Virus record (IMG/VR): IMGVR_UViG_2695420871_000010
Source: a virus
Lineage: Duplodnaviria > Heunggongvirae > Uroviricota > Caudoviricetes
Length of the DNA: 13,814 nt
Direction: 5' to 3' (one strand)
Part shown: piece after piece, positions 550-7,037 of the stretch
Layout: the number at the start of each line of letters is the position of its first letter
Numbering within the stretch: position 1 is the first letter of the stretch
The notes under the pieces: model-generated
What the model saw: the letters and a program-made list of their open reading frames with translations, nothing else
Database searches by the model: none
What the model was told of the DNA's origin: nothing
Program-made: the position numbers and the translations under genes

Positions 550-567
550 ATGATAGTTATTTATCAT
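550..567. repeat. Left copy of 18-bp att core repeat (attL), atgatagttatttatcat
   Basis: 17/18 identical to atgatagttatctatcat at 10655-10672; the repeat is internally palindromic (atgata...tatcat). Removing the sequence between the copies leaves a cspD-clpS spacer of ~320 bp. Confidence 0.65.
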
Positions 568-745: not shown

Positions 746-1984
746 ATGAGCAGCGCAATTCATAGACTTAGCGACACTCTTTTACGAAAATTAAGCGGAT
801 CACCAACCACAAAAAACGCCTTTTTTAATGACGGTGGCAATCTTAGCGTAAGACATTCCACCAGCGGCCTGTTAACCTGGTATTTCACTTACAGGGCCGG
901 AACTGGCAGGCAGGTATCACCGGAACGCCTGAGACTGGGCAACTATCCCGATCTGAGCCTGAAAGCAGCCAGGGAAAAAGCGGCACAGTGTCGCGCCTGG
1001 CTGGCTGAGGGGAAAAATCCGCGCTATGAGCTTAATCGTGCTGTACAGGATGCGTTAGCCCCCGTGACAGTTAAGGAAGCGCTCACTTACTGGCTTGAAT
1101 CGTATGCAAAGGAAAAGCGCACTGACTACGAATCACTGAAAAGCCGGATCAATAAACACATAATCAGCCAGATTGGCGCTTTGCCGTTGGAAAAATGCGA
1201 GCTACGGCACTGGTTGGCATGTTTTGACCAGATGGCAAAGCGAAGCCCAGTATCTGCCGGATTTTTGCTACAGGTATGCAAACAGGCGCTTAAGTACTGC
1301 CGAAAACGACGATACGCAATCAGCAACGTTCTTGATGATATGGTTGTCGGTGATGTGGGAAAAAAAGCAGAAATAAGCGAGCGCGTACTAACAAACAAGG
1401 AGCTTGGGGAATTACTCCGCGCCCTGGATGAAAAAATTTACCCACCGTACTACAGCGCCCTGATTCGCCTCCTGATTGTCTTCGGATGCCGTGCCACTGA
1501 GCTAAGACGCTCTGAGGTCCAGGAATGGGATTTTAAAGAAATGCTCTGGACCGTGCCGAAAGAACACAGCAAAACGAAGGTAGCAATATTCAGGCCAATA
1601 CCGGAAGCGATCTTGCCGTTCGTAACGAAGCTGGTGGAGCAGAACAGGCACACGGGATTATTGCTCGGAGAACTGAAAGGGCAATCATCCGTATCAGAGT
1701 ACGGAAGAACGGCACACAGACGCATTAATCAAGCCCCCTGGACGTTGCACGACATCCGGCACACGTTTACAACGATGCTGAACGATTTAGGCGTGGATCC
1801 TCATGTAGTGGAGCAGCTAACCGCGCACCAGTTGCCAGGAGTGCAACGAGTCTATAATCACTCCCGTTATCTCGATGCAAAACGTGACGCTCTTAATCTA
1901 TGGGTTGAGCGTCTCGAGCTTCTCCAGAACAATGATGAAAAAATCGTTGTTATGACCCCGCGAATTTACTCCCAAAATTCTTGA
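746..1984 (+). CDS. int: Tyrosine site-specific integrase, P4-like (412 aa)
   Basis: C-terminal catalytic region with ...LHDIRHTFTTMLNDLG... and ...VQRVYNHSRY... (R/H-x-x-R and catalytic Tyr context); N-terminal arm-binding-type domain typical of P4/CP4-57-family integrases; sits next to attL. Confidence 0.9.
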   Translation: MSSAIHRLSDTLLRKLSGSPTTKNAFFNDGGNLSVRHSTSGLLTWYFTYRAGTGRQVSPERLRLGNYPDLSLKAAREKAAQCRAWLAEGKNPRYELNRAVQDALAPVTVKEALTYWLESYAKEKRTDYESLKSRINKHIISQIGALPLEKCELRHWLACFDQMAKRSPVSAGFLLQVCKQALKYCRKRRYAISNVLDDMVVGDVGKKAEISERVLTNKELGELLRALDEKIYPPYYSALIRLLIVFGCRATELRRSEVQEWDFKEMLWTVPKEHSKTKVAIFRPIPEAILPFVTKLVEQNRHTGLLLGELKGQSSVSEYGRTAHRRINQAPWTLHDIRHTFTTMLNDLGVDPHVVEQLTAHQLPGVQRVYNHSRYLDAKRDALNLWVERLELLQNNDEKIVVMTPRIYSQNS

Positions 1985-2059: not shown

Positions 2060-2393
2060 TATATGTGTCAACTATCGAAAAAAATTGAAATGTCTTCTTC
2101 TGAGTTCTTATTCTCTGTTTCTTGATTATTCCAATACCTGATGGTTTATCTATTTGTTTTTAATGAGGTAATTCAGGTGTCATGCCAAATGGCGACATTT
2201 TTTGTTGCGTCGCTTAAAAACTCGTGACACGATTTTAAACACTAACGAGCTTCTACGAACCTTAGCGAACAAAGCCTTTAGCATGGTTGTGTTTTTAATT
2301 TAAGAGGTGAAAAAGAATCTAAGTAATATCCGATCTCATATATCTACAGCTAAGAGAAAAGTTTATATACGTAATTTTTATGTAGGTTTTTGT

Positions 2394-2603
2394 ATGCGTG
2401 AAATAAATGAAGATCGCGTAATCCGTGAGGATGAATGTCGTAAGTTAACTGGAGTGTGCCGCACTACACGTTACGAACTGGAGAAAAAAGGGCGCTTTCC
2501 GTCACGTCTTAATCTGGGCGGTCGTTCTGTAGGGTGGCTGCTGTCCGAGGTTATGGAATGGGTTAAAAGCCGGGATCGCATTAATTCAGGTAAGGCAGTG
2601 TAA
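2394..2603 (+). CDS. alpA: AlpA-family phage transcriptional regulator (69 aa from internal Met)
   Basis: …RVIREDECRKLTGVCRTTRYELEKKGRFPSRLNLGGRSVGWLLSEVMEWVKSR matches the AlpA/MerR-like HTH pattern. The track start at 2307 is a GTG embedded in an RBS-like taagagg with no spacer, so the in-frame ATG at 2394 is preferred; start is uncertain. Confidence 0.7.
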   Translation: MREINEDRVIREDECRKLTGVCRTTRYELEKKGRFPSRLNLGGRSVGWLLSEVMEWVKSRDRINSGKAV

Positions 2604-2948
2604 AGGGGAGCATATGACACATAAAACAAAGGCGACCTGGGGCGGTCGCCAGTTTGGAAACACTAAACATAAGCATGTCAATGATAGCCGCTATCAGGCT
2701 GGTGGGCAATGCTATCAGTCTGTTTCAGTGCGTTGCCATAACTGCGAAGCTCTCTCCTTTGATGAGTATTCTTTAAGGTACTTCTCAAGGGCAAAAGAAC
2801 ACGGCGCGAATCGTTCTGATTCATGCTCTTTCTTTCTGCGTCGTCTTTTTCGTGCAGGTGATGTTTTTTTGGTTGATTCTTCGTTGGTCATTGTGTGCGC
2901 CTGTAAAGCAATGCGCCGGAGTTCCTCACACCACGGCGCTGATAGTGA

Positions 2949-3254
2949 TTATTCTGATTCTTTGGCCTTGCGGCGCTGGAGTTCTTCGCGTGCAACGGTG
3001 ATAAGCTGCCCGATTTCCTCCGCTGCCTTGATGCCGATTTGTTCGACATTAGCTAGGGCATCCAGTGAAGACACAAGGGGATTTTCTCCACTTCCTTCTG
3101 CCTGGCGCCTGGCGATCTCACCGCGTACAGCCGTAACTATAAAATTCGCTTTAGTTTCCCCTGGCTGTAGGGATGCCTCAATGCCACTCACTACTTCATG
3201 TGGAAATCTGGCATTCAGTTGCTGTGACTTATTGTTAACAGAACTCCTGGACAT
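2949..3254 (-). CDS. Small ribbon-helix-helix-like DNA-binding protein, candidate island repressor (101 aa)
   Basis: Internal ATG at 3254-3252 is preceded by a strong RBS (GGGAGGTG, 6-nt spacer); the longer track ORF has no RBS. N-terminus …QQLNARFPHEVVSGIEASLQ… has a beta-strand then helix pattern like Arc/CopG. Divergent from the replication operon, with operator repeats in between. Confidence 0.5.
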   Translation of the reverse strand: MSRSSVNNKSQQLNARFPHEVVSGIEASLQPGETKANFIVTAVRGEIARRQAEGSGENPLVSSLDALANVEQIGIKAAEEIGQLITVAREELQRRKAKESE

Positions 3255-3287
3255 GTTTGCACCTCCCATTAATAACGGGATGCAGTG

Positions 3288-3343
3288 TAATACAAAAGTG
3301 AATACCAAAAAAGACTTGAAATGGTATTCACCTAAATGTAATG
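3288..3343. promoter_or_regulatory. Operator-like cluster: three copies of GTGAATACCA (direct, inverted, direct) in the divergent promoter region
   Basis: gtgaatacca at 3289-3298, its reverse complement tggtattcac at 3313-3322, and gtgaatacca at 3334-3343; located between the minus-strand RHH gene (start 3254) and the plus-strand operon (start 3455). Confidence 0.55.
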
Positions 3344-3454
3344 TGAATACCACAAGTGCTGATACATGCAATTCAGCAATTGAAACGACGAAGCCCCGCA
3401 AGTGTCGTTACCACTCGCAGGGCTTCTAACCAACAACGTAAACGAGGAGCCGTT

Positions 3455-3971: not shown

Positions 3972-4271
3972 ATGAGAACGTATTTATCTGGCTTGACTGC
4001 CAGCGGTTATGCACACCCCAAAATTATCCCCGGCGCTATTTATCTGGATAAGAACGGTAACAGAGTAACGGTAAAAGAACTGATGTTTGACCGTGTGTAT
4101 TTTATTCGTGATGGCTATTCATTTCATAGTTCGCTGAACGTGGAGATCTTTATTAGCAGATTCAGGCGGGAAATCCCGCTTTCCAGAAATAACCATGTGT
4201 CATGTATGGATGTTGATAAAAAACTACAGGAACTGAAAAACATGATTGCCGCGTGGAGAGAGCAGAAATGA
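3972..4271 (+). CDS. Hypothetical protein (99 aa)
   Basis: ORF in the operon; weak RBS. Its TGA stop (4269-4271) overlaps the ATG of the replication gene (4268-4270) as ATGA. Confidence 0.4.
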   Translation: MRTYLSGLTASGYAHPKIIPGAIYLDKNGNRVTVKELMFDRVYFIRDGYSFHSSLNVEIFISRFRREIPLSRNNHVSCMDVDKKLQELKNMIAAWREQK

Positions 4272-6058
4272 AAAAAGCGCCAAATTTAAAACACCAGCCG
4301 CGTGACAAAATGACGGAAGTCATCATTTTTGCGGGTAATGATGCGTGGGCACATGCGAAGCAGTGGCAGGAACAGGACGGGCGACTGGCTGGCGACAGCG
4401 TGCCTCCTGTCTGGCTTGGAGAACAACAACTTGCCGAACTGGATAAGCTGCAAATCGTACCGGACGGACGCTATCGGGTGCGTCTCTACCAGGCGGGGTT
4501 ATTGCGTCCGGGGCTTGTTAATACCATCGGGCAGAAACTGGCAGCGGCAGGTGTCAGGGATGCTGATTATTACCCTGAAGGAATGCACAGCCAGAAACGG
4601 GAGAACTGGCGCGAATATCTGGAACGTGAACGGGCAGAGCAGGCGGAAAAGAAAAAGGTAGTTGAACTGCCTGTAAAGAAAAAAGAGCGGGTAAAAGACG
4701 ATAACGCTTCATCACTGGCGCTTAACCAGATGGGAGCAAGTCAACGCGGCGAAGTTCTCCTGGCACATTATGGCGGTGAACTGGCGATTCATGCTGACTC
4801 TGACACTGTTCACCATTACAACGGCGTTGTATGGGAGCCAGTACAGGATAAAGAATTACAGCGAGCTATGGCACAGATTTTCATTGATGCGGAGATCAGC
4901 TATTCGCAGAACGCCATTAAATCGGCGGTCGATACCATGAAGTTAAGTTTGCCTGTAATGGGGAATACAGCCCGTAACCTGATTGGATTCAGTAACGGGG
5001 TATTTGATACCAGAACAGGTAATTTTCGGGAGCATAACAAAAACGACTGGTTGTTAATTGCCAGTGAATTACCTTTCAGCCCACCAGCAGAGGGGGAAAC
5101 GCTGGCAACACATGCGCCGAATTTCTGGAAGTGGTTACGCCGTTCGGTGGCTGAGAATGACCGCAAGGCGGATCGCGTACTGGCTGTATTATTCATGGTG
5201 CTGGCGAACCGGTACGACTGGCAGTTATTCATTGAGGTAACAGGTCCAGGGGGAAGTGGTAAAAGCGTGATGGCGGAGATTTGCACCATGCTGGCGGGTA
5301 AGGCCAACACAGTATCGGCAAGCATGAAGGCGCTGGAAGATGCAAGGGAACGCGCGTTAGTGGTTGGCTTTTCGCTGATTATCATGCCGGATATGACCCG
5401 CTACGCTGGTGATGGGGCAGGGATTAAGGCCATTACAGGCGGTGACAAGGTGGCAATTGACCCGAAACACAAAGCCCCCTACTCAACGCGTATTCCGGCA
5501 GTAGTGCTGGCGGTTAACAATAACGCCATGTCATTCAGTGACCGCAGCGGGGGGATCTCACGTCGTCGGGTGATATTCAATTTTTCGGAAGTTGTACCGG
5601 AGAACGAACGCGACCCCATGCTGGCAGAAAAAATAGAAGGAGAGCTGGCGGTTGTGATTCGCCACCTGCTTACTCGTTTTTCTGACCAGGACGAAGCTAA
5701 ACGCCTGCTGTATGAGCAGCAGAAATCAGAAGAAGCTCTGGTGATAAAACGCGAGGGCGATTCGCTGGTGGACTTCTGCGGCTATCTCATGTCGTCGGTA
5801 ATGTGTGATGGTCTGTTAGTGGGTAATGCCGAAATTATTCCGTTCAGTCCGCGCAGGTATCTTTATCACGCCTATCTGGCATATATGAGGGCACACGGAT
5901 TCGGTAAACCTGTAACACTGACGCGCTTCGGTAAAGATATGCCGGGGGCAATGGCGGAATATGGCAGGGAGTATATGAAACGGAAAACGAAGCACGGTTT
6001 GCGTTCAAATGTGACCCTGACAGAGGATTCAGAAGACTGGATGCCATCATGTGCATAG
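4268..6058 (+). CDS. Replication initiation protein, P4-alpha-like: D5_N-type domain plus SF3 helicase/NTPase (596 aa)
   Basis: Walker A GPGGSGKS followed by …VVGFSLIIMPDMTRYAGDGAGIKAITGGDKVAIDPKHKAPY… (P4-family primase/helicase C-terminal region). Start set at ATG 4268 (GGAGAG RBS, 6-nt spacer), not the track start 4253. Iterons lie immediately downstream. Confidence 0.85.
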   Translation: MKKAPNLKHQPRDKMTEVIIFAGNDAWAHAKQWQEQDGRLAGDSVPPVWLGEQQLAELDKLQIVPDGRYRVRLYQAGLLRPGLVNTIGQKLAAAGVRDADYYPEGMHSQKRENWREYLERERAEQAEKKKVVELPVKKKERVKDDNASSLALNQMGASQRGEVLLAHYGGELAIHADSDTVHHYNGVVWEPVQDKELQRAMAQIFIDAEISYSQNAIKSAVDTMKLSLPVMGNTARNLIGFSNGVFDTRTGNFREHNKNDWLLIASELPFSPPAEGETLATHAPNFWKWLRRSVAENDRKADRVLAVLFMVLANRYDWQLFIEVTGPGGSGKSVMAEICTMLAGKANTVSASMKALEDARERALVVGFSLIIMPDMTRYAGDGAGIKAITGGDKVAIDPKHKAPYSTRIPAVVLAVNNNAMSFSDRSGGISRRRVIFNFSEVVPENERDPMLAEKIEGELAVVIRHLLTRFSDQDEAKRLLYEQQKSEEALVIKREGDSLVDFCGYLMSSVMCDGLLVGNAEIIPFSPRRYLYHAYLAYMRAHGFGKPVTLTRFGKDMPGAMAEYGREYMKRKTKHGLRSNVTLTEDSEDWMPSCA

Positions 6059-6099
6059 GTCACAAATGACGATGGAAAAAATTAAACTTATGGAATAAC

Positions 6100-6327
6100 T
6101 GTTCACCACTGTTCACCCTGCAATAAATGTCTTTTATATCAGTATATTATAGGGTGAACAGTTATTTATGAACTGTTCACCAAACTATTCACTGTTCACC
6201 TTTTTGATTCTTTATTGAGCTTTAAGGGTGAACAGTGGTGAACAGTTGGTGAATAGTTTTTGTGAAACTGTTAACCCATTAACATCATGAATAAAAAGGG
6301 AAAATTGCAAAAGGTGAACAGGTGAAG
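6100..6327. repeat. Iteron cluster (TGTTCACC / GGTGAACA in both orientations), candidate replication origin (P4 ori/crr-like)
   Basis: TGTTCACC at 6100-6107, 6110-6117, 6174-6181, 6193-6200; GGTGAACA at 6153-6160, 6228-6235, 6238-6245, 6313-6320; degenerate copies (tattcac, ggtgaata, tgttaacc, ggtgaag) interspersed; AT-rich spacers. Confidence 0.65.
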
Positions 6328-6372
6328 GGTTAAAATGCAAAAATTTTATTTTATTGCTGTGAGGTAAAGCCT

Positions 6373-6618
6373 GTGACAACGAAGCACGCCAAAAAACCAC
6401 AATCTCACGCCCTTGATTTGACAGAACACTGGCTGAGGGTGGCGATAAAAATCATCGACCGCAACGCCGGGGAAGGATACGCGAAAGCACATCCCGAACT
6501 GATAAGCGCATTCATGACCACGACGGCGGCAAACTTTGCCACGCTGACAGAACGGGAGATTGCCGAAGCGGAACAGGTGACAACCATCAACGTTAAAACC
6601 GGAGAGCAGACAGCATGA
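6373..6618 (+). CDS. Hypothetical protein (81 aa), GTG start
   Basis: GTG at 6373 with GAGGT RBS 7 nt upstream; TGA stop overlaps the ATG of the next gene (ATGA at 6615-6618). No family recognised. Confidence 0.45.
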   Translation: MTTKHAKKPQSHALDLTEHWLRVAIKIIDRNAGEGYAKAHPELISAFMTTTAANFATLTEREIAEAEQVTTINVKTGEQTA

Positions 6619-7037
6619 CAGCACAGATAGCGGCTTACGGGCGGCTGGTGGCTGACCCGCAGTTAAAGACCACCAGCAAGGGTACGCAAATGACGATGGC
6701 GAGTATGGCGGTTCCCCTGCCGTGCAGCCAGGCAGATGACGGAACGGCGACGATATGGTTATCCGTCCTGGCGTTTGGCAGACAGGCTGACGCACTGGCA
6801 AAGCACCAGAAAGGCGAGCTGGTGAGCGTGGCGGGTAACATGCAGGTAAGCCAGTGGACAGGCCAGAACGGAGAAACGCGGCAGGGCTGGCAGGTTATCG
6901 CAGACAGTGTAATCAGTGCCAGAACGGCGCGACCGGGCGGTAAAAAAGGCCAACAGGGGCAGGCCACTGATGCACTGAACAGGGCCAAACAACAGGCGGG
7001 GAATGATGATCCGTACGGGGATAACATACCGTTTTAA
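6615..7037 (+). CDS. Single-stranded DNA-binding (SSB)-like OB-fold protein with SSB C-terminal tail (140 aa)
   Basis: OB-fold-like core (…GRLVADPQLKTTSKGTQMTMASMAV…WLSVLAFGRQADALAKHQKGELVSVAGNMQVSQWTGQNGETRQGWQVIAD…), a Gly/Gln-rich linker, and an acidic C-terminus …DDPYGDNIPF resembling the E. coli SSB tail (…DDDIPF). Confidence 0.7.
   Translation: MTAQIAAYGRLVADPQLKTTSKGTQMTMASMAVPLPCSQADDGTATIWLSVLAFGRQADALAKHQKGELVSVAGNMQVSQWTGQNGETRQGWQVIADSVISARTARPGGKKGQQGQATDALNRAKQQAGNDDPYGDNIPF

Follow-up and report, generated by a model that had tools for sequence, protein, structure and literature searches.

A mirrored iteron field downstream of a P4 alpha-like gene is the probable replication origin of a Gram-negative phage-inducible chromosomal island

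Introduction

In Gram-negative phage-inducible chromosomal islands (PICIs), the replication origin lies immediately 3' of rep and contains two sets of iterons placed around an AT-rich region (PMC6092414). The rep gene and origin of one such island, EcCICFT073, were able to maintain a temperature-sensitive plasmid, an ability that mutants of rep and of ori lacked (Fillol-Salom 2018, PMC6092414). In the satellite P4, the alpha protein binds the origin repeats through a winged-helix domain (PMC4234260, citing Ziegelin & Lanka 1995; Yeo et al. 2002). In the P4 record in GenBank (X51522), the octamer TGTTCACC is the annotated 'ori type 1 repeat'; ori (9310-9413) contains six copies and crr (4291-4590) ten. 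Here we describe a field of the same octamer in a 13,814-nucleotide stretch of DNA, referred to below as the window (IMG/VR virus record IMGVR_UViG_2695420871_000010, Caudoviricetes). The field lies directly downstream of a replication gene, rep, within an island of approximately 10.1 kb.

We propose, with a probability of roughly 0.85, that this field serves as the origin from which Rep initiates the vegetative replication of a Gram-negative PICI integrated at the cspD-clpS site. Origins of this type have already been described and tested in the sister island EcCICFT073, and the system is not of a new kind. What appears modestly new from the sequence comparisons is that two satellite families share one iteron word, and that iterons and Rep proteins form a matched series.

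Architecture of the iteron field

Exact copies of TGTTCACC/GGTGAACA occur ten times in the 13.8-kb window, and eight of them fall within 6100-6320: four on the plus strand (6100, 6110, 6174 and 6193) and four on the minus strand (6153, 6227, 6237 and 6313). In 200 dinucleotide shuffles of the whole window, TGTTCACC appeared 0.47 times on average and at most three times; none of the 200 reached ten. The two copies outside the field stand alone, one inside rep (4807) and the other in the chromosomal clpS gene (11017). The conserved repeat unit is 9-10 nucleotides long: CTGTTCACC is found in all eight exact copies and ACTGTTCACC in seven of them. Four further iterons are degenerate (CTATTCAC, GGTGAATAG, CTGTTAACC and GGTGAAGG; Table 1). 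The original prediction, made from the DNA letters, had placed at least eight exact octamers in both orientations, together with degenerate copies, in an AT-rich non-coding segment of about 230 bp. Our counts agree with that description, and the coordinates given for the field (6100-6327) and for the gene (4268-6058) were accurate. The GC content of the field (6099-6328) is 0.35 and falls to 0.09-0.25 in its spacers, compared with 0.5-0.6 in the flanking genes. The homologous stretch is intergenic in the RefSeq annotation of homologous loci, and the sole open reading frame (ORF) overlapping the field, 62 codons on the minus strand (6212-6400), comes from a mechanical ORF list.

The field begins 41 bp past the rep stop codon. 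Its 12 iterons form an imperfect palindrome of 230 bp centred near 6213, in which the six sites of one arm mirror those of the other (pairs 6193/6227, 6185/6237, 6174/6248, 6153/6268, 6110/6313 and 6100/6321). When the field is folded as single-stranded DNA (-46.4 kcal/mol, z=-7.4 relative to shuffles), the whole of it pairs arm to arm, showing its dyad symmetry. Tandem iterons are mostly spaced 10-11 bp apart, about one helical turn, so that the sites lie on one face of the helix. At the dyad centre, the AT-rich spacer is a candidate melting site.

No DnaA box lies within the field or beside it, and the field contains neither a promoter-like site on the plus strand nor a terminator-like site. 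Rfam returned only far sub-threshold matches for the field, to eukaryotic microRNA hairpin families, an artefact of the palindrome. A literature search with the octamer retrieved unrelated primer sequences only.

Conservation of the field in related loci

The comparative set comprised approximately 25 related loci, across which the position and layout of the field are kept. A single field of approximately 220-230 bp directly follows rep and usually has the strand order ++-++---, even where the iteron word is a different one (L010, TGTCTAC); this order is retained in L007, L009, L010 and the particle-derived record vB_KppS-Ant. All PICI-type loci have one field each. In an alignment of eight loci with the TGTTCACC word, drawn from six genera, the share of invariant columns is 70% in the iterons versus 34% in the spacers (Fisher p=1.4e-8). 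By this comparison of alignment columns, the iterons are under purifying selection.

Of 5,426 complete E. coli genomes, 648 contain the rep-ori module, O157 strains among them. One O157 relative, L001 (FDAARGOS_293, NZ_CP022050.2), encodes a Rep 98% identical to that of the window and has nine exact TGTTCACC copies. Its island splits the terminase large-subunit gene of a prophage (2074-3078 and 13414-14544), and the L001 and window integrases share only 23% identity. The location inside the split gene indicates a phage satellite that disrupts a prophage packaging gene. This rep-ori module is also carried by vB_KppS-Ant (LR881103.1, locus L076, 11721-11949), where eight exact TGTTCACC copies follow the order seen in the window. 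This is a 16.5-kb phage record from an induced prophage and encodes a terminase, portal, capsid, connector and one tail gene only, a gene set that makes it look like a capsid-forming PICI (cf-PICI). The occurrence of the module in such a record hints, indirectly, at its autonomous replication and at induction and packaging by a helper phage.

The Rep protein and its relation to P4 alpha

The rep product consists of an N-terminal domain of approximately 130 residues, a D5_N domain, a superfamily 3 (SF3) helicase domain with the Walker A motif GPGGSGKS, and, at the C-terminus, a winged-helix origin-binding domain. Identity to residues 320-771 of P4 alpha, which span the helicase and origin-binding domains, is 50% (51% and 48% in the two domains, respectively). 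The last approximately 100 residues match the solved origin-binding domain of alpha (PDB 1KA8, E=2e-24). With an SF3 helicase and a homologue of the solved alpha domain, the gene next to the field is the P4-alpha-like helicase gene that had been predicted. The octamer, which the same prediction took for the type I iteron of P4 ori and crr, is indeed annotated in both regions of X51522.

The two initiators differ at their N-termini: P4 alpha carries a DnaG-type primase domain of approximately 320 residues, which is absent from Rep. The N-terminal domain of Rep is short, appears Toprim-like and seemingly lacks the catalytic acidic motifs. Pfam, NCBIfam and PHROGs assign it no function, and this type of domain also occurs fused to RepA-type helicases. 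The 'pri-rep' proteins of such PICIs may therefore not be primases at all.

Rep shares the helicase and origin-reading domain of alpha, and hence the P4 iteron word. The 8-bp type 1 iteron is identical in P4 and in the window, and in both it is clustered in two orientations with a tandem spacing of 10-11 bp. A manual count gives 27 matching positions out of 30 between the window triplet GGTGAACAGTGGTGAACAGTTGGTGAATAG and the P4 ori triplet GGTGAACAGTGGTGAACAGACGGTGAACAG. P4 crr follows the alpha gene directly on its 3' side, and the window field occupies the equivalent place after rep. The overall layouts are different: in P4 a distance of 4.5 kb separates two cis regions, ori and crr, whereas the island has one palindromic field. 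No second cluster of TGTTCACC or of its one-mismatch variants is found elsewhere in the 10.1-kb island. The type 2 repeat array of P4 ori was not found, and a search for a counterpart of the 120-bp direct duplication of crr revealed no long direct duplication.

A further P4 origin, ori2, has been reported within the alpha gene. Inside rep, an exact CTGTTCACC (4806-4814) lies 23 bp from an inverted copy with one mismatch (4775-4783), an arrangement that may be due to chance.

Despite these similarities, we reject the identification of the island as a P4-like satellite. The core set of such satellites comprises int, psu, delta, sid, alpA, epsilon plus alpha (Moura de Sousa and Rocha 2021); sid, psu, delta and epsilon are absent, indicating that the island does not belong to this family, and the window contains no cnr homologue either. 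In a tblastn search of the window with all P4 proteins, matches were confined to int (23% identity), vis/alpA (45%) and, for alpha, its C-terminal two-thirds (50%).

Co-variation of the iteron word with a segment of Rep

Six iteron words occur downstream of related rep genes: TGTTCACC, TGTCTACC, TGTCCGCC, TGTCCACC, TGTGCACC and TCTCTACC, entered in Table 2 in the forms GGTGAACA, GGTAGACA, GGCGGACA, GGTGGACA, GGTGCACA and GGTAGAGA. Each is paired with its own version of a short segment in the C-terminal domain of Rep that follows the predicted recognition helix. In P4 alpha and the window Rep, which have the same word, this segment conforms to KR(K/H)TK(H/Q)G-(L/I)(R/Q)(S/T)N. The helicase domains of L006, L010 and L011 are 90-93% identical to that of the window, yet their word is different; P4 alpha is only 51% identical in this domain and has the same word. 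Thus, overall divergence fails to explain the co-variation. The pattern supports the view that Rep reads these repeats, and it is the strongest in silico evidence for it.

Table 2. Iteron words and the corresponding Rep segments
Iteron word	Rep segment	Loci
GGTGAACA	KRKTKHG-LRSNVTL (P4: KRHTKQG-IQTNLTL)	Window, L001, L003-L005, L007-L009, P4, L033
GGTAGACA	KRAKCTKGPDKGRVITNVLL, 5-residue insertion	L006, L010, L011
GGTAGACA	TRKVKGV-TQTN	EcCICFT073
GGCGGACA	KKAESKKKATRGRIQSNITL	L013, L014
GGTGGACA	KKERATRGPSKGNYQSNVTL	L015
GGTGCACA	RKFKTKRG-YYYNVDL	L041, L044, L045
GGTAGAGA	TRCIKGV-TQTNVQL	L051, L054

Comparison with EcCICFT073 and with other origins

The window shows the arrangement published for Gram-negative PICI origins, with six plus six mirrored iterons around the spacer at 6201-6226, directly 3' of rep. 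Its field aligns iteron for iteron with the origin of EcCICFT073, in both position and orientation, but the word in EcCICFT073 is TGTCTACC rather than TGTTCACC. The EcCICFT073 Rep has the same domain layout and is 48% identical over its full length. Identity is highest in the N-terminal domain (67%) and falls to 32% in the DNA-binding domain, where the specificity segment also differs. The window shares the order int, alpA, icd-like gene, DUF4222 gene, rep, a gap of approximately 290 bp, a gene of 81-85 codons and ssb with EcCICFT073 and EcCIIHE3034, and the last ORF is also syntenic between the window island and EcCICFT073. Protein identities to the EcCICFT073 counterparts range from 35% to 87%. 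One difference concerns the capsid genes: EcCICFT073 and EcCIIHE3034 encode a capsid and a decoration protein, the window a single protease-capsid fusion. The suggestion that the gene and the field make up a self-contained replicon agrees with the published replication test of the homologous EcCICFT073 rep-ori segment.

Origin specificity is likewise island-specific in the SaPIs, the pathogenicity islands of Staphylococcus aureus (Ubeda et al. 2007, cited in PMC6092414, PMC7145576). A classical iteron plasmid of the RepA/Pi/TrfA type, in which a non-helicase WH1-WH2 initiator binds the iterons and relies on DnaA boxes and the DnaB helicase of the host, was also considered and rejected, as the initiator belongs to SF3 and no DnaA box lies in the field or beside it. 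SaPIs reside in another host phylum than the window island, and their initiators belong to an unrelated sequence family and use different iteron words. Papillomavirus E1 and SV40 large T combine an SF3 helicase with an origin-binding domain, and their inverted sites flank an AT-rich core. The resemblance is one of analogy, and its only link in sequence is a weak match of Rep to Pfam PPV_E1_C (E=1.6e-4). They differ from the window in the fold of the origin-binding domain, which is a winged helix in Rep, and the window has many more sites (12), in a bacterial mobile element.

A model for initiation

The sequence of events that we propose is as follows. After induction and excision of the island, Rep would bind the 12 iterons through its C-terminal winged-helix domain. 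Like other SF3 initiators (papillomavirus E1, SV40 large T and P4 alpha), it would assemble and oligomerise on both arms, as expected from the mirrored arrangement of six iterons per arm, mostly on one helix face. Melting of the central AT-rich spacer (6201-6226) by Rep would follow, with outward unwinding that predicts bidirectional replication, while the single-stranded DNA-binding protein (SSB) encoded by the island would coat the strands. The polymerase would be supplied by the host. Primers would probably come from the host primase, because the N-terminal domain of Rep is short and Toprim-like and seems to lack acidic motifs.

Several points weigh against an origin that works in this way. 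The experiments on Reps of the TGTTCACC class are limited to P4 alpha. Since P4 needs two cis regions, the sufficiency of one field is deduced from EcCICFT073, and the Rep of that island shows only 48% overall identity to the window Rep, falling to 32% in the DNA-binding domain. Shared ancestry among the loci reduces the co-variation to a handful of independent events, not 25. The specificity segment would form a beta-hairpin 'wing', as judged from general winged-helix topology; a single-sequence model of the Rep C-terminal domain reached only pLDDT 39 (a per-residue confidence score). Finally, rep in the window ends at a TAG codon (6056-6058) that relatives read through (TCG in L001) to a TAA at 6083-6085. 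The early stop, nine codons ahead of the one shared by the rest of the family, removes the last nine residues, SVTNDDGKN. Three iterons (6185-6192, 6268-6276 and 6321-6328) are degenerate where those of relatives are exact. Given the early stop and the degenerate iterons, the copy in the window could be slightly impaired.

Alternative explanations

The field might act as an accessory enhancer of the P4 crr type, which loads or concentrates Rep while the true origin is elsewhere. It occupies the position of crr, immediately 3' of an alpha-like gene; GenBank labels crr a 'cis required region for replication'; and the P4-like Proteus loci L041, L044 and L045 have a crr-like field plus a second cluster approximately 8 kb away. 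We consider this very unlikely, because the 10.1-kb island contains no second cluster, PICI-type loci have a single field, and both the 120-bp duplication of crr and the type 2 repeats are absent from the field. In EcCICFT073, moreover, rep with the adjacent ori region sufficed for plasmid maintenance. That region also bears on whether the repeats serve mainly as a Rep operator or in copy control, either by repressing or insulating the transcription of the downstream 81-codon gene, ssb and capsid gene or by handcuffing. Many plasmid iterons serve both roles, and with rep on one side of the field, genes of the same direction on the other and no terminator detected, bound Rep could act as a roadblock. 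However, deletion of the homologous region abolished replication of EcCICFT073, the six-plus-six dyad around an AT-rich core is origin-like, and no promoter-like site was found on the plus strand of the field. A predominantly regulatory function is thus highly improbable, and a regulatory side role coexisting with origin function is possible.

The degenerate iterons and the early TAG in rep raise the question whether the island has been domesticated and its origin has decayed, leaving a field without function; in addition, among the complete E. coli genomes of the collection, none matches the whole window above approximately 94% identity. On the other hand, the Rep frame is otherwise full-length with an intact Walker A motif, the nine lost residues fall outside the region aligned to 1KA8, and eight exact iterons persist. 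The integrase, alpA, ssb and both attachment (att) cores are also intact. The chance of decay to this extent is, in our estimate, slim. The inverted repeats could instead form a structured RNA or attenuator in the transcript from rep to the 81-codon gene, in which case the changes in the arms would be compensatory RNA co-variation. The strand does fold far better than shuffles, and across loci the arms change in concert with complementarity kept. A hairpin, however, has no need for same-strand tandem copies at 10-11 bp, and some arrays are direct or unbalanced ('+++' in the Proteus loci, '++--+----' in L011 and '++++--+-' in L042). Rfam gave only the far sub-threshold microRNA matches, and the word, which in P4 is established as a site of protein binding, co-varies with a protein segment. 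We regard the probability of an RNA element as negligible. A Rep-dependent origin remains the reading that we prefer.

Implications of the matched series

The window Rep and P4 alpha, from unrelated satellite families, have the same origin word and the same specificity segment but are otherwise only about 50% identical, raising the question whether they may fire or titrate each other's origins where a cell contains both satellites. The repeated switches of the word, with insertions or substitutions in one small segment of Reps whose helicase domains are at least 90% identical, would then be escapes from such cross-talk or incompatibility. We consider this possible but doubtful. The series of words and segments predicts which satellites can cross-replicate or exclude one another, and it offers a natural map of the specificity determinant in winged-helix initiators of the P4 alpha type. 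The cis-acting origin of a PICI lineage, and the code by which its Rep probably recognises it, would be useful for PICI-based delivery vectors and for island annotation.

Gene content of the island

Its sequence features identify the element as a Gram-negative PICI of approximately 10.1 kb at the cspD-clpS site of an E. coli-like chromosome. The size follows from the positions of the two ATGATAGTTAT cores (Table 1), beyond which lie chromosomal clpS and clpA. EcCIIHE3034 has the same att core and the same cspD-clpS site (Table S1, PMC6092414). All assigned island genes are on the plus strand, in the gene order of PICIs and with no lysis or tail genes. The DUF4222 gene is unrelated to P4 Cnr.

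Table 1. Coordinates of the iteron field, its components and other features of the island
Feature	Position	Strand	Remarks
Iteron field, putative replication origin	6099-6328	none	12 sites, palindrome, fold
Outer left iteron pair, CTGTTCACC-A-CTGTTCACC	6099-6117	+	10-bp spacing
AT-rich spacer	6118-6152		GC 0.23; sequence variable in relatives
Iteron GGTGAACAG	6153-6161	-	Head-to-head with 6173-6181 over an 11-bp AT spacer
Inner left triplet	6173-6200	+	CTGTTCACC 6173-6181; degenerate CTATTCAC 6185-6192 (1-bp loss compared with relatives); CTGTTCACC 6192-6200
Central AT-rich spacer	6201-6226		26 bp; GC 0.23; dyad centre
Inner right triplet, GGTGAACAG-T-GGTGAACAG-TT-GGTGAATAG	6227-6256	-	10- and 11-bp spacing; degenerate GGTGAATAG 6248-6256
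Degenerate iteron CTGTTAACC	6268-6276	+	Exact (CTGTTCACC) in O157 relative L001
Outer right pair	6313-6328	-	GGTGAACAG, then overlapping degenerate GGTGAAGG (6321-6328); relatives: GGTGAACAGGTGAACA
rep	4268-6058	+	596 aa from ATG 4268; Pfam D5_N, DUF5906, Pox_D5
attL core ATGATAGTTAT	550-560	+	
Tyrosine integrase	746-1984	+	77% identical to EcCICFT073 integrase
AlpA-family regulator	2307-2603	+	PF05930, E=2e-16, domain aa 36-86; phrog_2790
DUF4222 gene	3972-4271	+	Overlaps rep start; upstream of rep also in EcCICFT073 and EcCIIHE3034
Conserved 81-aa gene	6373-6618	+	Directly downstream of the putative origin; phrog_1231; 87% identical to EcCICFT073 counterpart
Island SSB, replication module	6615-7037	+	Pfam SSB, TIGR00621; 80% identical to EcCICFT073 SSB
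attR core ATGATAGTTAT	10655-10665	+	

The lone morphogenesis gene (7697-9577) encodes a fusion of a ClpP-like prohead protease with a major capsid protein, and the island has no portal or terminase gene. The prophage beside L001 encodes a protease-capsid fusion of the same type, which hints at a matching of island and helper. An ORF of 271 codons (2614-3429), in the variable stretch that separates alpA from the icd-like gene, has no match in Pfam, NCBIfam, PHROGs or PADLOC; its product is possibly an island accessory or anti-phage protein. Just inside both att cores, at 572-722 and 10520-10582, are arrays of short repeats with GTGTTCG/TTGTTCG units, and with three copies of GGTGTAGTCAAT/GGTGTAGTTAAT at the left end and two at the right end. 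They resemble the iterons superficially (TGTTC) yet are built on a different word, and are probably arm-type sites for the integrase or excisionase.
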